From an uncultured Gemmatimonadales bacterium (GTDB lineage Bacteria; Gemmatimonadota; Gemmatimonadetes; Gemmatimonadales; Gemmatimonadaceae): 64,000 nt of DNA. This document shows positions 9,717-23,732 of the stretch, piece after piece (the stretch's first letter is position 1; each line of letters begins with the position of its first letter). The DNA lies in NCBI GenBank assembly GCA_963793305.1, contig CAWBZV010000005.1, positions 1,056,001 to 1,120,000 of the forward strand, given 5' to 3'. The notes under the pieces are model-generated. The model was not told the DNA's origin, made no database searches, and saw nothing but the letters and a program-made list of their open reading frames with translations. A program made the position numbers and the translations under genes.

Positions 9717-10801
9717 TCGTCGGCCGGACCGCATTGCCGCGTTGACCGAACGTCATCGCAAATTCGCAGCTCGATGGTCTATTGCTGTCGAGCCCAGCCA
9801 ATATTCGGTACCTGACGGGCTTCTCAGGCTCGTCGGCCTTGGTCTTCATCACTGCGCGAAAAGAGGTGCTGTTCATAACCGATTTTCGCTATAAGACACA
9901 AGTCGCTGACGAAGTGGGCGATCTCGCGCGCGTGATGATCGAGTCGCAGAGCCTCTGGACGGGCCTGTGGCAGGCATTGCCGAATTTCGGCTATGTCGAA
10001 GTCGCGGGCTTCGAGTCGGCCCACGTCCTCCATCGCGATTTCCAACGTCTCCTCGACGCCGGCGCCCGCTGGCAATGGCGCCCGGTGATTGACCTGGTCG
10101 AGTCGTTGCGCGAGCGCAAGGATCCCGACGAAGTCGCGCTCATCGCCAATGCCGCATCGATTGCGACGCGCGCGCTCACGCGGACGTTGCCGGGAGTCCG
10201 TGTCGGCATGACGGAACTGGAAGTCGCTGGCGTGCTCGAACAGGCGCTCCGCGACGAGGGGTCGGAATCGTTCCCATTCCCCTCCATTGTCGCGTCAGGT
10301 GCGAGGTCGGCGTTGCCCCACGCGCGCTCGTCGGCCAAGGCGATCGAAAAGGGAGATCTTTTACTCATAGATTTTGGCGCCGAAACCGGCGGATATTGCG
10401 CCGATGTGACCAGAACGATGATCGTCGGCTCGGCGACCGACGAGCAGCACGAGCTGTACGAAATAGTCAGGTGCGCCAACGAGACGGCGACCGCGCAGGT
10501 GCGGGCGGGGCTCAAGGGAAAGGATGCCGACGCGCTGGCGCGCGACTACATTGAGCGGCGCGGTTACGGTGATGCGTTCGGCCACAGCCTGGGACACGGG
10601 CTGGGACTGGAGGTACACGAGGCGCCGCGTTTGGCGCGGACGGCGGACCAGGTGTTGGCCGTCGGCGCCGTGGTAACTATCGAGCCGGGGATTTACCGGC
10701 CGGGCTGGGGTGGTGTACGGATCGAAGACGACGTGCACCTCGGCCCGGATGGACCGGCCGTCCTGACGCACTTCACGCGCGAATTGCTCGAGGTGGCGTG
10801 A
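9709..10801 (+). CDS. Xaa-Pro aminopeptidase (M24), one apparent +1 frameshift near 9749
   Basis: NIRYLTGFSGS, DFRY, YCADVTRT, HSLGHGLGLEVHE, TIEPGIY, GGVRIEDD; removing one A in CGAACG joins the MRDRRPDR start in frame. Confidence 0.9.
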
Positions 10802-14578: not shown

Positions 14579-16856
14579 ATCGTTTCAGAGCATGTCCGGC
14601 GCGAGCTTTCCGGCATCGCGCTTCTGTTGTTCGCGATTTTTCTCGGCGGTGCCTTGCTCGCCGGGGGCGGCGGCGCGCCGTGGCTGGCCACGGACCCTCG
14701 CACCTGTCTCACCGTCCATGGGTGGTTCGGGCCCGCCGGCGCGTGCCTGCGCGCTGGCCTGCAGGCCTTCTTCGGCATTCCGGCCGCGCTGTGGCTCCCG
14801 CTGATTCCGGCGATCCACGCCTTGCGATTGTTTGGTCGAATGCAGGAGAGCACGGACCGCTCCTGGCTCGTCTTCCTCGCCGGGGGCGTGCTCTTGCTCC
14901 CGATCGCCCTTGGTCTCGCGGTCGCACCGGCCCCTCCCTCACACGATGATGTCGCGGGTCTCTGGGGCAACCTCGCCGCGTTTTACCTACGCAAGTCGCT
15001 GGGCCCGATCGGATCGTGGATTTTAGTCGCGCTCGCGGGCAGTGGATTGATCGCGGCGACGCTGTCCTACAATCCGATTCGCGCGCTGCTCACGCCTCGG
15101 CCGCCTCGTCCGAAAGTGCCGGTCGCCGAAGCGGACCCGCGCGAATTCCCGGGAGTAGAACCGTCACCGGTCCCCCAGGCTGAATCCAAAGCCCTCGAAG
15201 CCTCCGAAGTCGCCGGGGGAATCGCAGAACCGCCGCGGAAATCACGAGGTCGCGGTCGGCGCGGCGAAGCCGCCGCCGCTGCGCTCATTGACCCGACCGA
15301 GTCGACCGAGCCTCCGCCGCCGAGCCCAGCGACCGACGAGCTCCCGCCGGTCACACTCTTGACGCCGGCCCCGGAAAAGAACGTCGAAGTCGGCAAGCGC
15401 GAGCTCGACGCGATGGGCGACAAACTCCTCGCGGCCCTCCGCACATTTCGGGTCGAGGCCGACCTCGGCGAGCGCACGACCGGCCCGGTCGTCACGCAAT
15501 TCGAGGTGATCCCGGCCGCCGGAATCAAGGTCCGCCAGATCGCGAGCCTGGCGAACGATCTCGCGCTGGCGATGCGCGCCCCGAGTATTCGCATCGTCGC
15601 CCCAATCCCGGGCAAGGGCGCCGTCGGCGTCGAGGTCCCGAACCCCGTCGCCGACATCGTGATGCTGCGCGAGCTCCTCGAGTCGCCCGAGTTCCGCACC
15701 TCGCGCGCCGCCTTACCGTTGATACTCGGCAAGGACCTCGAGGGCCGTCCGGTCATCAACGATCTCGCGAAGATGCCCCACTTGCTGATCGCGGGCGCGA
15801 CCGGCTCCGGCAAATCCGTCTGTGTCAACACGCTGATCACGGCGTTGGTCTATCGTCACACACCGAAGACGCTGCGTTTCTTGATGGTCGACCCGAAGAT
15901 GGTCGAGCTCTCCGTGTACAACGGTCTGCCCCACAAGCGCCTCGACGTCGTCACCGACAATCGCGAAGCCGCCAAGGTCCTCAAGTGGGCGCAGTACGAG
16001 ATGGAACGCCGCTATCGTTTGCTCGCCGAGAACGGCTGCCGCAACGTCCAGGAGTTCAATCGCCGGGTCGATGAGGGCAAGCCAATGCAAAACCCAAAGC
16101 AGCCCGACGTAGCATTCGAAGAACGCACGTACACAGAGGGTCTACTCCCCTATATCGTCGTCGTGATCGACGAGCTCGCCGATCTCATGATGACGGTGCA
16201 AGCCGAGATCGAAACCCCGTTAGCGATGCTCGCGCAAAAGGCCCGAGCGATCGGCTTGCACCTGATCCTCGCCACGCAGCGCCCGAGCGTGAACGTGATC
16301 ACGGGTCTCATCAAGGCAAACTTCCCGAGCCGAATCGCCTTCCGCGTCGCCTCCCAGGTCGACAGCCGCACGATCATCGACGGCATCGGCGCCGAGTCCT
16401 TGCTAGGAAATGGCGACATGCTCTTCATCCCGCCAGGCAAGTCCGAGCCGCTCCGCCTTCAGGGCGCCTACATCTCCAGCGAGGAGACCGAGAAGCTGCT
16501 CGACTGGTACAAGTCACACGGTCCCACGCCCTCCGCCGAGGGCTCTGAGCAAGACATCTTCGAGACGGTCCGCCTGCGCGAGCAGGCCGAGCGCGAGAGC
16601 GCCGAGGGCGGCGGCGATCAAGCCGGCGCCGCCGAGCGCGACCCGCTCTTCCGCGAGGCCGCCCAGGTCTGCATCCAGAACCAACAGGGCTCGACGTCTT
16701 TATTGCAGCGCAAGCTCAAGGTCGGCTACGGCCGCGCCGCCCGCATCATCGACCAGCTCCACTTGGCCGGCGTCCTTGGGCCCCCGGACGCCTCGAAACC
16801 CCGCGATGTGCTCGCGGGCCTCGAGGATCTGGACCGCATTCTGCGGACCGAAGTGA
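14579..16856 (+). CDS. ftsK: DNA translocase FtsK (probable ATC start; apparent +1 frameshift near 16839 extends the track ORF to 17014)
   Basis: 4TM N-terminus, MPHLLIAGATGSGKS, DELADLMM, ATQRPS, gamma domain LLQRKLKVGYGRAAR; removing one T gives ...DLDRICGPK* ending at 16856. Confidence 0.9.
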
Positions 16857-16857
16857 A

Positions 16858-16972
16858 TTCGCACCGCGTTGCGAAAATTTGCGACACGATTGCGAGGTGG
16901 CGAACGCATCTCCGTTTTTCGCATTTTTCGCACGTTGCCGTGCGAATTTCGCGCGACAAAATGCGAATCGCA
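16858..16972. repeat. Cluster of TGCGA/TCGCA direct and inverted repeats upstream of the Rhs gene
   Basis: TTGCGA at 16869, 16879, 16890; tandem TTTTTCGCA x2 at 16915-16932; hairpin TTCGCACG-TTGC-CGTGCGAA at 16927-16946; TGCGA-A-TCGCA at 16962-16972. Confidence 0.75.
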
Positions 16973-17096
16973 GGAATGCCAATTTTGCTAAGGCCCGATG
17001 CGCGTGAGGGTTAGCGCGCAACGGTAACGGGCACTCCGGATGCTAAAGGAGAGGGCTGGAATGTAGTCCCGTTTCAGTCCTTAGCCCGGAGTCGCT

Positions 17097-20000
17097 ATGC
17101 CGCAGGTCCCTCGCCCGCCTGGCCGCTGGTTCAGGCGTCTTCTCATCCTCGCGGGAGTAAGCCTCGTCGCTTCTGTGGCGGCACCACGACTCGCTCGGGC
17201 GCAGACGTGCCAGAACGCGGTAACACGTATCAGCCCCTGCGGCGGCTCGTTGGTCGTTTCGCCCGGAGCCACCAATCAGAAGCAGACCTTCACCGTCTAC
17301 GATCTGACCGCCAAGGGCCAGAGCTTCCTAGTGAGCGCGGCATGCACCGGCTACGTGACGTCGTGCTCGGCGTCGCCGACGACCGCCAATATCAATCCGA
17401 ATAGCTCCACACCGATCACGGTCACGTACAGCGTGAGTAATACGGGAGGCACCGGTCAAATCTCGCTGACCGGTAATGGTGTCACCGGCTACCTGAACAT
17501 CAACTCCCAACACCGACCCGCGATCGTGACGCTGCCGTACTACAACAACGACAACGTGCAGCCGACGCTCTGCTTCGCGAGTTGCTTCGACAAAGTGCTG
17601 ACGTACACGACGCCGGCCTACGTCACGCTGGATACACCGCACAATGTGACCCTCATGTATCGCAGCAATACCGCGAATCCGATGGTCACCGTCCAAGTCG
17701 ACGCGCTGGATAGTTCGACCGTCAGACCGTCGAAGATGTCGCTCAAGATCCAGCGGCCAAACGGCACTTTCGTGATGTTCACGAACGGGACGAACGAGTT
17801 GTATTTCCCGTTCTCGACGTTCGATTATGCCGGAGCGCCTGGCCGGGCAGTTCGCACCGGTGGCGCCGGACACGCTGACCAACGCGTACAACTACACCGC
17901 GATCGTCACCAGTTACTGGACCGATTCAACGGTGCTGTCGGGCAGCACACCGCTCCGGGTTCTCCTCGAGAACGACCGGTCGAGTGTGTTCGGCGCCGGT
18001 TGGACCGTCGCCGGCCAACAGACGATCCACGTGCAGTCGAACGGTGACGTCATGATCACCGACGGCATGGGCGCCATCAGCTATTTCAAGTTGAATACGC
18101 CCGGGTGCGTGCAAAGCTGTACCTTCACCTCCCCGAGCGGCGACTACACCGCGTTGACGACCAAAGCGGTGGATCAATTTGGCCGCCATTACGACCGCCG
18201 GTATCCCGACGGAACGACCTACGAGTTTCTCGGTGGCGGTGCATTGGCGGGCCTCTACGACAAGAACGGCAACCAGACCGTCTACTGGTACGACAGCCAG
18301 GGACGCGATTCGTTGATCAGTGACCCGCTCGGCTCGTCGTTCTCGTACGGCATGCACTTCGCGTACGGCAGTGGCACGGACGGCTGGAAGGCGGGCGCCA
18401 TCCGGCAGATCTACGATCCGTACGGTCGGTACACGTGGTTTGGCGTGGACGCCAACAACGACCAACGCCAGATCGAAGATCCGATGGGCGGTCAGTATGG
18501 TGGCATCCTGCTCACGATCTATGCCTTTTACAACACGCAACACCAGCTGGTCGCGAACATCGATCGCCACCAGGCCGCATGGCACTTCGGCTACGATTTC
18601 GCGGGGAAGCTCCTGGCCGATACGACGCCTCCGGTACTGGCCGATGGGGTGACGCAGGGGGTGGTGACCAAGTATCAATCGTCGGAGTCGACGTTCCTGA
18701 TCAACCCCAGTACTGACTCTGGCTCCGCCACGCTGTCCGCCGGACTCCGAGGCGGCGGTCCATGGGGGGCTTCGACAACGACCCCCGAAGGCCATCAAAC
18801 GAATTTCACGGTCGATCGCTGGGGGCAGCCCCTGACCGTCAACGACGCGAGCGGCGGCACGACGACGTATGCCCGGACCGGACCGTTCGCGACCGTCACG
18901 ACGCATCCCTGGGGCGCGATCGATACCACCACCTACACGAACGGGTTGTTGACGTACGAGCACGACTATCAGCGGCCCGCCATTCACGCCAGCTACGGCA
19001 ACTCGTTCGGCGTGCCCGACAGCGTTTGGGGATCGCACGTGCCATCCCGCCGGGTCTTCGTCCACGCGAATGGCGCCGTCGACAGCATCCGCGTCGCCGG
19101 CGCCTACACGACACACTTCTATTACGACGCGAGATTGCGCGATACGATGATCGTGGATCCGATCGGGCACGCCACCCACTACGCCTATGACCCGACGTTC
19201 GGCAACGAGGACAGCAGCGCAGGGCCCGGCAACGTGGTGGTGAAGCGGGGATTCAATGGCTACGGGCGCAATGTGTCCGAGACGGCGACGGGACTCCCCA
19301 CGTCGAACACGGTGTACGACGCGCTGAATCGCATCACCGAGCAGTACACGACGGGTCTGACGGACACGACCCGCTTCCGGTACGATAGCGCGTACCTCGT
19401 GCGCGTCCAGGATCCGAAGGGACAGGTGTATAAGCAGGATGTGAACGCGCTGGGATGGGGGATACGCACCTACGATCCCGCGGACACGATCAACCGACAC
19501 ACCGATTACACGTTCGACAAGGACGGCCACCGGACGAGCTTCACGAATCGCCGCGGGCAGCTCGTCTCGATCAGCTACGAGGCGCTCGGGCGCGTGAGCG
19601 CGATCAGCGGCGCGGTCGCGGCCGTCGACTCGTTCTCGTACTCCAGTAACCGGCGCGTGCTCGCCGCCTGGAATGCGGTCTCACGCGATACGTTCTACCT
19701 GTCGCCACGACTCTGGACCGACTCGGTGGTCACGCACATAGCGGGACGTCGCTTCTCCAAGGTGGACACCGCGACGCTGGGCGATCAGATCGCGTCGGTC
19801 ACATGGCATTCGGACCTGGGATTGGGCAACGTTCCCGTACGGCCAACGAACTTCACTTGGGACTCGATCTCGGGTGGCCTGGTCAGTTTCGGCATCGAGT
19901 CCGGTATCGGGGTCGACATTTTCTACGACGGCGCGCATCGGCGAGACTCGACGTGGTTCGCGAACATGGGGCTCTCGCGCATCGAGCAGTATACGACGCG

Positions 20001-21705
20001 CAACACGGTGTACCATGTGGCGTATCCCAATTTCGATAATTCGTCGGATTCGACGGCGGATACGGAGTTCGGCCGGTACTACGACTACGACGCACCGGGC
20101 CACATCATCAACGCGATCCAGCATCGCGCCGGCCACCTGAACTATCGCGCCTACGGGTACGACGGCCTCTCCGAACTGCTGCAAGCGACGAATAACGCCA
20201 CCTCGGCGCCGGGAGGATTTCCGGCCGTCGACTCGAGCTTCGGCGTTGGGGTATCCGGTGGCGATTCGACTGTCTTCTGGTACCCGGGGTACGACATCGT
20301 CGGGAACGATACCCTCGATAGCGATGCCCCGAATGTCTACTTCCACAATTCGTTCGCCGTCGGCAACCGCGTCCAGACGCACAATCTGCTGAACTATACC
20401 GAAGATCTCGACGGCAACGTGACCCGCCGCTACGATGCCAATCGCGATATCCGGTTCAACTGGAGCGGCGACGGATACCTGACGAGCGACAGTGTCGCTG
20501 GCACCGGTGAGACATGGCAGTACGACTACAATGCGCTGGGCCAGCTGGTCCGCCGCAGGCACAATGGTAATCCGGACCGATATTTCCTGTGGGACGGCGC
20601 GCAGCTCACGGCGGAGATGGATTCGCTCGCGCAAAACGCCATCGCGGGCTACTACTACTACCCGGGTTCGAACGAACCCGTGGAGATCGAGCACCACACC
20701 GGGAACGACTGGGATCCGGCCGAGTACTTGATCGTCGACCGGACGGGGAGCGTGATCGGTGCCCTGCAGAATGCATCAGGACTAACGGAGGTGCTCACCT
20801 ACGATCCCTGGGGCGTGCTCAATCCCGCGCTGTCGAACCTGTATACGCAGGGACAGGACAATCGACTGCGCTGGAAAGGAATGATGTGGGAAGGGGATTC
20901 GACGCAGCTGTACTACGCCGGGAGCCGGTGGTATGACCCCGTGCTGCGCCGTTTCATGAGCGAAGACCCGCTCGGATTGTCCGGCGGCATCAACGAGTAC
21001 ACCTTCGGTGGGAACGATCCGATCAACGCCGCGGATCCGACCGGCACGTGCGCTTACTGGATGGGTGGGGTCTTGGACAACGCGCCCGTGTTCAGCACCG
21101 GTCATGACCTCAGAGGTGACAACTTGATCTGCAGCGGAAGTAGCCCCTCGGATCCTTGGGTGACCTACATCCAACAGGTGAACGTGACGGCGCCCGCGCC
21201 GATCGCGCCGTCCGACCCGTGGATGGGCGTATCCGCAACGTATACCAACAGCGGGTTCCAGGTGATGGCCGTGCCAGGCTTGGGCAACGTCCACAGTGTC
21301 GATCATGCGTGGAACTTCAACAAAGACTGCGCGATGGCGTTGGGAGCGTTCGCGGCCGTTGCCGCTTCGGACGCGCTGATCGCCGCCAAGGTTGCCAAGA
21401 TCTTCCCGCTGGCATGGGAAGCCGCCAAGTTTGGAACGGCGTCGACGTTAGCTAAGCCGCTCATTTCGGGAACCGCGGCGACCGCCAGACTCTCTCGCGT
21501 GCTCGGCGCGGCGTCGATGTCGTACGCGACGTTGCGTGACGTGCATCTGACGGCCGATGGCCTCGAGTACTTGAATGGCTTGCAAGTCAGCGGCGGGGGG
21601 TCGAACGTGAATGACTTGGGGGATGTGCTCATGCACATCACGCCGTTCTTGGATCTCAAACCGGCCATGGACGACGCCAACGCATCCTGCCAGGAAAATC
21701 AATGA
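17097..21705 (+). CDS. Secreted Rhs/YD-repeat polymorphic toxin (about 1535 aa; one apparent +1 frameshift near 17826)
   Basis: Signal peptide ending ARA|Q, Thr/Ser/Cys-rich beta domain, many YD repeats, Rhs core RWYDPVLRRFMSEDPLG...NDPINAADPTG, then a variable C-terminal domain. Confidence 0.9.
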
Positions 21706-22130
21706 AACAACCAGAGGGAGAGCCGGCCCCATCGCAATGGATGCGGGACCTGCGTTGGGGAGCTGCGATCGGACTCTTCGTGGGGACCGTGCTCTCCCTC
21801 TGGGTCTGTGCGGTTTCCTTAACAACCGGCAGGACGGAGTTCCCGCGGCTGGGAATGAGCCTCGGAGCCGTGGTCGCCTTTTACTACTTGGGTGCCCTGA
21901 TTGTCGGCCTGATCATCGGCCTGCTTCGGCCAGCGACGCGGACCGCATTCGGCGCCATGGCCGTCGGCGTCATCGCCGGGCTGCCGGCGGGAGCGTTGAT
22001 GGACATCTGGACCTACACCGGCCCGCTGACAGGTTGGTTCGAGGCGCGCTGGTGGTTCCCGGTTGTCGTGAGCCTGGCCGTCGGTGCGCCGGCGGGCTAC
22101 ATGATTTGGCGCCAGAATCGCTCGGGATGA
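21702..22130 (+). CDS. Probable Rhs immunity protein, 4-TM membrane protein
   Basis: ATGA overlap with the Rhs stop; 142 aa with four hydrophobic segments. Confidence 0.7.
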   Translation: MKQPEGEPAPSQWMRDLRWGAAIGLFVGTVLSLWVCAVSLTTGRTEFPRLGMSLGAVVAFYYLGALIVGLIIGLLRPATRTAFGAMAVGVIAGLPAGALMDIWTYTGPLTGWFEARWWFPVVVSLAVGAPAGYMIWRQNRSG

Positions 22131-22382: not shown

Positions 22383-22862
22383 ATTCGCTCACTTGCCGAT
22401 TTCATCGAATCGACATTCTTCGAAGCCGTATTCATTCCCGTCCTCGTCGTGTGCGTCGGTATTGCCCTTCGCTTGCTCAGCATGCGATCCGATGATCAAC
22501 GTCGGCCAGTCGACGCGTATGCTGCTGGCTGGGATCTCATGGTTGCGGGATCCGTGCTGGCGTGCGAGACGCTCTTTCAACTCCTTCGGTGCTCGCATGA
22601 ACCGGGCATTCCCAACCCGTTCTGCGCTCGGTATTCGCGAATGGCGAGGGCCGCGAACGTGACATCCGATGAGTATGTTACACTCAGCATCGGCTTCTTT
22701 CTCGTCGTCGCCCTGTTGGCCCTCGTCATAACGAGCCTGGTTCGCAGGTTCGGCTGGAACCGCGATGCCAGAGAGTGGCGACTGAACCGCGTCGGCGTGG
22801 TCCTGCCGTGGATTGGTGGACTGATGGTCGTATTTGGCGTGTTCTACTTGAGGGGCTACTGA
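22383..22862 (+). CDS. Hypothetical 4-TM membrane protein (start uncertain: ATT 22383 or GTG 22449)
   Basis: Open frame from 22374 with hydrophobic segments FFEAVFIPVLVVCVGIAL, LSIGFFLVVALLALVI, VVLPWIGGLMVVFGVF; GAGGT upstream of 22383. Confidence 0.55.
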   Translation: MRSLADFIESTFFEAVFIPVLVVCVGIALRLLSMRSDDQRRPVDAYAAGWDLMVAGSVLACETLFQLLRCSHEPGIPNPFCARYSRMARAANVTSDEYVTLSIGFFLVVALLALVITSLVRRFGWNRDAREWRLNRVGVVLPWIGGLMVVFGVFYLRGY

Positions 22863-22864
22863 GA

Positions 22865-23266
22865 ATGCACGCAAAATCGCGGCGGTTTACTGCCACGCTT
22901 ATTTTCGCGACAGCTGGCTTTGGCCTCGTCGGCCTAACCCTGGCGGTATTCACAATGAACGGCCAGCCGGTGAGCGAGCAGTCACGTCTGTGGTATCTGC
23001 CACTCACAATCGCGGGAGGGCTTCTCGCCGCCGCGATTGTTCGAATTTTTGAGTCCTCTTCCAAGCCCGTCTCCATCTGGGAGCAATATCTCATGGGGAA
23101 ACTTGGACCGGTCGACGACGAGCTGTTGCGTCGTATGACCGAAGAGGTGATGGCAGAACTAGTCGAGAAGCACGGGATGACTCTGGAGCGCGCATCCAAG
23201 CCCGAAGCCGGTAGCGCCCGCACCCCGGCTCAGCCCGATCTGTTCGAGAAATTCAGACGCAACTAA
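22865..23266 (+). CDS. Hypothetical 2-TM membrane protein with charged C-terminal tail
   Basis: ATG 2 nt after previous stop; two TM segments then helical acidic/basic tail. Confidence 0.55.
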   Translation: MHAKSRRFTATLIFATAGFGLVGLTLAVFTMNGQPVSEQSRLWYLPLTIAGGLLAAAIVRIFESSSKPVSIWEQYLMGKLGPVDDELLRRMTEEVMAELVEKHGMTLERASKPEAGSARTPAQPDLFEKFRRN

Positions 23267-23328: not shown

Positions 23329-23703
23329 ATGCTCACCGATGCCCAAACCCTCGGCCTCCTCGGCGAACGGATCGCCGCGAAATGGCTGCGGCGCCGCGGC
23401 TGGCGGGTGCTGGAGCATCGGTTCAAGAACGGGCACCGGGACCTGGACCTCGTAGTCCAAAGGGGTAAGACCGTCGCGTTCGTCGAGGTCAAAACACGAA
23501 CCGACCTCTGCTTTGGCGGCCCCGTCAGCGCCGTCGACTTCTTCAAACTCCAGCAGCTACGGCGCTCGGCCGTGGTCTGGATGTCGCGCTACGGCCGATC
23601 CGGCCTGGAATACCGGATCGATGTGGTTGCCGTGTGGATAAGTGGCTGCGATGTGAAAATCTACCATGTGGAAAACGCGCATGTTTTCCACTTGGATGGT
23701 TGA
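23329..23703 (+). CDS. yraN: YraN family (UPF0102) PD-(D/E)xK protein
   Basis: GLLGERIA..WL, DLDLV, FVEVKTR, YRIDVVAV. Confidence 0.9.
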   Translation: MLTDAQTLGLLGERIAAKWLRRRGWRVLEHRFKNGHRDLDLVVQRGKTVAFVEVKTRTDLCFGGPVSAVDFFKLQQLRRSAVVWMSRYGRSGLEYRIDVVAVWISGCDVKIYHVENAHVFHLDG

Positions 23704-23717
23704 TTTTCGCCTGTGCA

Positions 23718-23732
23718 GTTCGCATTTTGTTC
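23718..23732 (+). promoter_or_regulatory. Candidate LexA/SOS box GTTC-N7-GTTC in the recA promoter
   Basis: GTTC GCATTTT GTTC immediately upstream of -10-like TATTCT (23737-23742). Confidence 0.6.

Follow-up and report, generated by a model that had tools for sequence, protein, structure and literature searches.

Rhs toxins that do not use a type VI secretion system (T6SS) need a way out of a diderm producer and a way into a diderm target. This problem is raised by a locus in the window, by which we mean the whole 64,000-nucleotide stretch of DNA from an uncultured Gemmatimonadales bacterium that was analysed here. The locus consists of an Rhs gene (17097..21705, on the forward strand, as are all window features below) for a protein of 1535 residues, and of a gene for a small membrane protein (21702..22130), the start of which overlaps the Rhs stop. 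Most likely, it is a satellite effector locus of a polymorphic-toxin platform of the Gemmatimonadota. A stand-alone sigma-54 activator, encoded elsewhere, would turn the Rhs gene on. The Sec pathway would carry the protein to the periplasm, where it would fold, form disulfides and cleave itself at its DPxG motifs, with the C-terminal 219 residues (the tip) staying in the shell. A dedicated type II secretion system (T2SS) would then export the folded cage, and the tip would reach the periplasmic face of the inner membrane of a rival, possibly by way of a TonB-box-like motif. There, a disulfide-clamped helical module of the tip would damage or depolarise the membrane, and the downstream membrane protein would neutralise the tip. 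The joint probability of periplasmic folding and self-cleavage, T2SS export, membrane damage and neutralisation by a membrane protein is roughly 0.5.

In the list of open reading frames (ORFs), the Rhs gene appears as two frames, 17097-18047 and 17827-21705. The frameshift between them is an assembly error. The surplus base, at 17820, is missing from the contigs of three of four runs (X1, X3 and X4), the fourth (X2) having no coverage there, and comparison with run X1, which is nearly identical to the window and may be the source sample, reveals three indels in 7.4 kb (16839, 17820 and 22864). The homologue P0004 is continuous across the break with 96-98% identity, and its locus, L090, holds an intact ORF, leader included, of exactly 1535 residues, the approximate length that the earlier note had given. 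A real frameshift, placed at 17826 in that note, and two independent halves are both ruled out by these contigs together with the intact allele. One RNA run, which contained 0.06 of the sequence words, was left out of the comparison. Single-base indels are frequent throughout the assembly, and several paralogues as well as rpoN are also split; given this frequency, apparent pseudogenes in the source genome need care.

The window gene belongs, to judge from its sequence, to a family of Rhs toxins with signal peptides and polymorphic C-termini that extends across the Gemmatimonadota. Homologues of its N-terminal region occur in 43 of 401 Gemmatimonadota genomes, at 71 places and mostly in frames of 1450-2050 residues, and the hallmarks of Rhs polymorphic toxins, i.e., YD repeats, a bipartite DPxG core and a C-terminus that varies on a conserved scaffold, are all present. 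The C-terminus is far from invariant: 60 distinct tips were obtained from the loci collected, and differing tips occur at one and the same locus. Cysteine is found in 58 of these 60 tips and its count is even in 54 of the 58 (p = 1.6e-12, controls near one half), while the 12 cysteines of the intact allele are arranged as six neighbouring pairs. Such even counts are what one would expect if disulfides form in the periplasm, and they support folding there. When 15 sister tips were scanned, three gave toxin-type matches, to Tlde1 (E 1e-13), to a PLA2-like domain (E 1.6e-6, below the cut-off) and, weakly, to Ntox28, and the Tlde1 and PLA2-like tips support a platform of toxins directed against the envelope. 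Sec-dependent polymorphic toxins with signal peptide, RHS repeats, variable tip and immunity gene have been described before (Zhang et al. 2012, PMC3482391); the table of that work, in its accessible part, gives no neighbourhood signature for the Sec route and a single pore-forming family, Tox-WTIP, the motifs of which (RxxR and Wx[ST]IP) are not conserved in the alignment of the window's tip family.

The window tip, with 219 residues, four cysteines (at 21049, 21130, 21328 and 21688) and no match in Pfam or NCBIfam, agrees with the C-terminal domain of about 220 residues, with cysteines and no recognised motif, that had been described earlier. Its family is unnamed, and its members appear to share one order of parts: a Cys loop, the TonB-box-like motif, a linker and a helical module clamped by two cysteines. 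In the window, the first Cys-Cys loop (21049..21132) is drawn from the cysteine positions and the even cysteine counts. The module, a helical, Ala/Gly-rich segment between two invariant cysteines and a putative membrane-active toxin (21328..21690), is drawn from the family alignment and a structural model. Exactly two cysteines, 103-133 residues apart, occur in the module in 14 of 14 members. The members are only 11-26% identical to the window tip, the invariant residues over 14-17 alignment rows are C, P and C, and the alignment has no conserved set of catalytic residues, with an Asp in helix 1 partly conserved. Neither the tip nor the module has a sequence match in Pfam or the PDB, the colicin pore domain included. 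A phmmer search with the tip against 1.84 billion representatives gave four matches, one of them real; pairwise BLAST among the family tips gave nothing, and the ESM Atlas gave for the tip leads below 0.9 only (PT-TG, 0.81). Because these searches were unproductive, the family was reached by way of the immunity gene. A profile of the module then found two tips outside its training set, both directly ahead of an immunity-family gene; its weak matches in genomes G040 and G373 were dismissed as non-tip frames.

The downstream gene encodes a putative cognate immunity protein of 142 residues, from an unnamed family with three to four transmembrane segments. Of the 4-transmembrane gene that had been reported to overlap the Rhs stop, the overlap stands and four hydrophobic blocks are visible in the alignment, but hydropathy counts three strong segments; among 33 family members there are four such segments in 17, three in 14 and two in 2. 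The family has no match in Pfam or the PDB, and the best leads in the ESM Atlas are unnamed clusters at 0.88. A six-row profile matches 33 of the 401 genomes of the phylum, and locus scans with narrow queries gave two loci each. In 30 loci with 37 immunity-family genes, 14 of these genes stand directly behind a tip with a two-Cys module, 2 stand behind remnants and about 21 are orphans. Seen from the side of the tips, a gene of the family follows 13 of 15 tips of the window's family and 0 of the 45 other tips, where the first count includes training cases and a near-identical allele and the second is independent. One of the two misses lies at a locus edge and is cut; behind the other stands a membrane gene of another kind. 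This coupling at the family level, together with the two new tips that each precede a family gene, bears out the earlier claim that tip and membrane gene belong together. The predicted complex of module and immunity protein scored 0.19, with the mark at 0.32.

That the Rhs gene and the gene behind it are an antibacterial toxin-immunity pair is from this highly probable. The same coupling would be given by variable pairs of ligand and receptor, and a teneurin-like architecture would also suit a protein that is no toxin but a ligand in kin recognition or signalling, with the membrane protein as its cognate receptor. Sister proteins carry recognised toxin domains, however, and the membrane gene occurs in orphan arrays, as is typical of immunity genes, which leaves the ligand very little credit.

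As for the action of the tip, the balance leans slightly towards membrane damage. The modules contain 25-38% Ala/Gly and have amphipathic helices, and the module model is all-helical, with a confidence (predicted local distance difference test, pLDDT) of 60 and a predicted template-modelling score of 0.41. Fold searches with this low-confidence model turned up nothing beyond generic helical matches (best Z 7.4; best Foldseek E 1.7), and those to colicin Ia and E lie in coiled coils. The similarity to colicin pore domains that the earlier note had proposed to look for was thus not found, either by sequence or by the fold of this model, and a pore proper would be a conjecture, with no fold match and modest hydrophobicity. 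A close precedent is Tse5/Tsi5 of Pseudomonas aeruginosa, in which a helical tip, caged by Rhs and without an enzyme motif, is reported to depolarise membranes and the immunity protein is integral to the membrane (PMC10684867, PMC9637101). The spacing of DPxG-X19-DPxG in Tse5 is, in the accessible description, identical to that in the window protein (PMC10684867). Tse5 differs by T6SS delivery through a PAAR-like leader and by the two predicted transmembrane regions of Tsi5, and its PDB match to the window protein is limited to shell and core.

On the same platform, the tip might instead act without a pore. It could bind a target in the envelope and block it (lipid II, undecaprenyl phosphate and membrane proteins are candidates), or it could be an unrecognised enzyme, and the downstream membrane protein would sequester it. 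The modest hydrophobicity of the modules, the partly conserved Asp and the sister tips that are envelope enzymes would fit such a tip, and a membrane immunity protein does not specify pore formation. Yet a family in which just C, P and C are invariant is a poor one for an enzyme, and the Ala/Gly-rich, amphipathic helices also speak against such a tip, so that we regard action without a pore as rather improbable.

Entry into the target may be approached through the octamer at 21169..21192, which scores 9.4 bits on a TonB-box matrix built from 34 TonB-dependent receptors of the source genome with no pattern imposed beforehand. The earlier note had pointed to a TonB-box-like motif, and matrix scoring finds it enriched in the window's tip family: the median score is 3.7 for family tips, -2.6 for other tips (p = 2.6e-4) and -2.2 for the family's own last 70 residues; shuffled family tips reach at most 0.5, compared with an observed mean of 3.7; and scores of at least 5 bits are found in 5 of 14 family tips versus 2 of 45 others. 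By these numbers the signal appears real but moderate. TonB-driven uptake of the tip is a tentative reading of it; the octamer could instead be a docking strand. More doubtful still is the fullest version, a caged group-B colicin, in which a T2SS subtype under sigma-54 control is devoted to folded Rhs cages of 160 kDa, the TonB box drags the tip through a receptor and the module then opens in the inner membrane. If true, it would explain how contact-independent Rhs toxins cross the outer membrane of the target.

Pore-forming colicins have a hydrophobic hairpin and are released by lysis. Group B colicins are imported by way of a TonB box (PMC5821083). The window's pair would resemble them in its order of parts: a disordered N-terminus with a TonB-box-like motif, then a helical domain, then an immunity protein with three to four transmembrane segments. 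The window tip differs from them in that it has no match to the colicin pore domain, sits in a cage, would be exported by Sec rather than released by lysis, and belongs to a gene that has no LexA box.

The exit from the producer would begin with the leader (17097..17201), a putative cleavable Sec signal peptide of 35 residues that was recognised by eye. Similar leaders are found on sister proteins, and with the gene intact the description as a Sec-signal Rhs protein probably holds. A signal peptide does not fit T6SS export; it is known from Sec-dependent RHS toxins such as WapA. In agreement with this, no PAAR, VgrG or WXG100 domain was matched in scans of Pfam and NCBIfam, and the N-terminus has, in place of a T6SS-type leader, a hydrophobic leader and an immunoglobulin (Ig) domain. 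The further claim that T6SS parts are lacking is right locally but not for the genome, in which VgrG and TssC are encoded about 310 kb away. The cluster there (G000:C5:751000-763000, with TssC and one VgrG) stands apart from the Rhs genes.

What the earlier note had missed is a T2SS operon with a sigma-54 activator that is linked to the Rhs family. To exemplify, at the paralogue locus L094 of the source genome (G000:C3:790800-806600) a complete T2SS-like operon with gspE, gspG, gspF, pilins, gspK and gspD comes first, then a sigma-54 activator and then a signal-peptide Rhs gene of 1870 residues. Its gspG scores above the cut-off, the activator is stand-alone (345 residues, no sensor domain), and the gene order is repeated in many relatives. 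With the secretin of this locus as query, a family Rhs gene was found within 20 kb, and mostly at 2-5 kb, of 27 of 68 related secretins and of 0 of 50 distant ones. The cut-off of this comparison, E 1e-74, was set after the results were in view, and kin among the genomes do not count as independent cases. A close secretin is present in 29 of 43 genomes with Rhs and in 30 of 358 others. When 13 further close secretin loci, which had given no Rhs match, were re-read, an Rhs core was found in 8 (in 2 of them as short matches only) and an adjacent activator in 9, and 7 distant secretin loci, taken as controls, had neither. In a secretin tree of 28 rows, the secretins that neighbour Rhs are divided between two supported groups, of which they make up 5 of 7 and 10 of 13 rows, and the 8 rows outside have none; a single clade of such secretins is not what this tree shows, and it carries a long-branch warning. 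In G162, G225, G116 and G344, carriers of window-type tips have gsp genes or the activator as neighbours. The link to gsp genes holds for the Rhs family and not at the window locus, so the window gene would use the T2SS in trans, and we consider its export by Sec and T2SS quite probable.

There are precedents for this route. In Xanthomonas perforans, Bcn-A is an Rhs toxin that is active in the supernatant, is lost in an xpsD mutant, requires ORF2-4 and has a predicted inner-membrane immunity protein (PMC7259588). Rhs families linked to gspG are reported from Xanthomonas and Ralstonia in a preprint, the accessible part of which calls T2SS export of Rhs not functionally confirmed (bioRxiv 10.1101/2025.05.08.652813). 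The likeness lies in an Rhs toxin tied to a T2SS and in membrane immunity. Going by these partial descriptions, and not by sequence comparison, the link of those toxins is either with gspG or with the general Xps system, whereas here a whole gsp operon and a sigma-54 activator adjoin family genes, and neither a TonB box nor a Cys-clamped tip is described for them.

The secretin and pilin genes could also be read as an apparatus for display or contact, the Rhs protein being a contact-dependent toxin on the cell surface, similar to WapA or to teneurin-like proteins (TLPs), and the octamer serving to dock the tip in the shell. The N-terminal part of the protein bears on this. The first 585 mature residues were modelled with a pLDDT of 85 and comprise an Ig domain, a plug and shell. 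The Ig-like domain (17202..17531; pLDDT about 90) has Ig-fold matches with Z 9-10 and a root-mean-square deviation (rmsd) of 2.3-2.6, and a weak fn3_5 match. The teneurin/TLP-like plug (17508..17982, approximate bounds) has a CxxxC pair that is invariant in 18 of 18 rows and is directly followed by the shell. The best fold matches of the whole model are RhsP, RhsA and the teneurin-like 9ifo (Z 21.3, 21.2 and 20.7). In the last of these, model residues 108-582 align to residues 706-1478 (rmsd 4.3, 364 aligned); the alignment starts with the plug and passes over about 300 residues, with 475 residues here compared with 773 in 9ifo, from which follows that the NHL propeller between plug and shell is, in the model, missing. 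No NHL domain of Pfam was matched in the 1535-residue protein either. The YD/RHS-repeat shell (17983..20964) matches PF05593, TIGR01643 and Rhs structures in the PDB. After it comes the Rhs core autoprotease, DPxG-X19-DPxG (20965..21045), which passes the cut-off of TIGR03696 (E 3.4e-19). Both DPxG motifs claimed earlier are present, starting at 20965 and 21034, but the range 21034-21045 that was given for them spans the second only. Self-cleavage at DPxG is a property of the Rhs family; in the window protein it is the motifs that are seen.

A published counterpart is BiTLP, which has a Sec signal, Ig domains, an FN-plug, a YD shell, a bipartite DPxG and a downstream immunity gene, and whose disulfide-linked tip permeabilises cells only when given a signal peptide (PMC13018210). 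The window protein shares these parts, the FN-plug included, with a putative Sec signal. As far as the accessible text goes, TLPs are defined by FN-plug, NHL and shell, of which NHL was not found here, the Gemmatimonadota are not among the six TLP phyla, and the BiTLP tip has 92 residues compared with 219 here (PMC13018210). Besides the teneurin-like plug, surface display would be favoured by the one to several Ig domains, which could be adhesins, by the low octamer scores and by Bdellovibrio, in which Rhs genes are reported to adjoin pilus genes (PMC3818213). Against it speaks that the major pilin scores above the cut-off for GspG and that a GspK is encoded, that by eye neither a lipoprotein anchor nor a wall anchor was seen, and that the enrichment of the octamer is a feature of one tip family and does not extend to every tip carried by this shell. 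Taken together, this makes surface display unlikely, and T2SS export of a folded cage is preferred.

Control of the Rhs gene by sigma-54 is likely. At 17030..17043 lies a sigma-54-type -24/-12 element, GG-N10-GC, which follows the sigma-54 consensus. Of 18 Rhs upstream regions, four have the strict pattern at -67 to -70 (background 3.6% per 200 nucleotides), and near-matches were seen by eye in four more. A looser pattern, for which no background was computed, has a site at -50 to -103 in 7 of 16 further Rhs starts. Two of nine genome-wide matches to the sigma-54 pattern precede Rhs genes, rpoN is present, and a search for a sigma-70 promoter found none. Further upstream, an element that travels with Rhs (16915..17015) contains inverted repeats (16927-16946, 16987-17015) to which the activator may bind, and has counterparts at both Rhs genes of L090, at the Rhs remnant of G003 and at a paralogue on contig C12. 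Ahead of one subgroup of Rhs genes, a motif of 16-18 nucleotides was seen in three to four copies (L025 near 10050-10400; G000:C5 near 1470900); these repeats start like a sigma-54 -24 box and have no -12 GC.

The earlier note had instead proposed induction by DNA damage and colicin-style release, on account of a motif shared with the recA promoter. The Rhs and recA promoters do have an 11-nucleotide string in common (7 copies in the genome), and the locus is next to yraN-recA-recX. The string is mostly the spacer of a LexA-type box, GTTC-N7-GTTC, which precedes recA in the window (23718..23732), where it belongs to recA and not to Rhs, in G001 and in G003, and also one of two lexA genes (G000:C5 near 1433700); the second lexA, on C2, is without it. 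From these two genes it is a candidate for the LexA box of the lineage. It is missing in 18 of 18 Rhs upstream regions, on which ground SOS control was rejected and induction by DNA damage is not supported. Furthermore, the Rhs promoter of G003 is without the 11-nucleotide string, no lysis gene was seen, and it is the sigma-54-type element that is conserved. SOS-induced release is for these reasons most improbable.

Several observations weigh against the satellite-effector reading. No T2SS gene or activator lies near Rhs in the window, no related secretin was seen in 14 of the 43 genomes with Rhs, and for 40 of 71 family genes none lies inside 20 kb, many contigs being short; the post hoc cut-off belongs here as well. 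Three paralogues behind an activator have no sigma-54 match. The five of 14 family tips that reach 5 bits remain well under genuine TonB boxes, with their median of 17. A 19-residue hydropathy of 1.6, unlike in the hydrophobic hairpin of colicins, is reached by only 4 of 14 modules, the net charge of the modules ranges from -6 to +5, and their model is weak except at its ends. Finally, the roughly 21 of 37 immunity-family genes that have no family tip upstream, and the family tip with a different membrane gene behind it, do not fit a strict pairing.

The interval between ftsK and yraN, in which the locus lies, is a hot spot. Its left border is ftsK (14627..16857), which has Pfam FtsK domains and an end shared with its orthologues; the listed ORF overruns the true end near 16857 and extends to 17014 because of the assembly indel at 16839, which is not present in the contigs of X1, X2 and X4. 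The right border is yraN (23329..23703; PF02021). Between the Rhs pair and yraN lie two possible orphan immunity genes, so regarded from their position only: a small hydrophobic ORF of uncertain start (22449..22862) and a small ORF with two transmembrane segments (22865..23266). The relatives, labelled Gemmatimonadaceae or Gemmatimonadales, fill the interval differently. It is empty in G002; G001 has orphan membrane genes and a piece of the window's immunity gene, 90% identical; in G003 a deletion has joined this promoter and leader to another tip; L090 has the window gene, in tandem with it a second Rhs whose tip differs, and one more gene of the immunity family; and the contig of G005 stops at ftsK. 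Tips and downstream genes thus differ among relatives at this locus, where the earlier note had proposed to test for co-variation. In L090, the 3' end of ftsK (gamma domain) is duplicated around an inserted gene (L090:4560-5400), which suggests integration by recombination at the end of ftsK. The same interval in G003 holds an orphan tip with an HxH..S..D pattern and no Pfam match, presumably JAB-domain-like, and then a signal-peptide gene (L039:5530-5916). A search for repeats in the window gave nothing informative.

Is the system new? In the full-text literature, from which subscription papers are mostly missing, we found no TonB box in an Rhs tip, no whole gsp operon with activator beside Rhs and no description of the system in Gemmatimonadota. 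Nor did that literature yield the combination of a caged tip, a TonB-like import signal and a dedicated T2SS operon. The claim of an undescribed system is nevertheless overstated, as the class is known: Rhs toxins that are exported by Sec or by a T2SS and have membrane immunity have been published, and each principle has a precedent in Bcn-A, the gspG-linked Rhs families, BiTLP or Tse5. What the analysis adds is a real, intact Rhs toxin-immunity pair with two unnamed families, a probable export system dedicated to such toxins, and an uptake signal of colicin type that can be tested. The Rhs family supplies testable parts for exit as well as entry, i.e., the co-encoded T2SS operon and the TonB-box-like cargo motif. 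With it come a toxin-immunity family that has no name and, for a phylum of soil bacteria, a candidate weapon.

Some further loci were seen on the way. At G000:C5:1480014-1482464, an Rhs tip, which we take to resemble a TreTu-type toxin, is followed by a candidate immunity gene. L026 (4952-5566) and L027 contain tips with a hydrophobic tail, followed by a soluble HExxH gene, a second unnamed family of tip and partner. At G000:C3:1392965-1399283, an activator is followed by a small secreted Ig-like ORF and an Rhs gene of 1502 residues, the tip of which resembles the PLA2-like tip of G001 (L025), and a similar small Ig ORF seemingly stands ahead of Rhs in L023. Finally, G000:C12:317500-326000 holds TcdB- and TccC-like ORFs, split in the assembly, that are presumably related to ABC/Tc toxin complexes.

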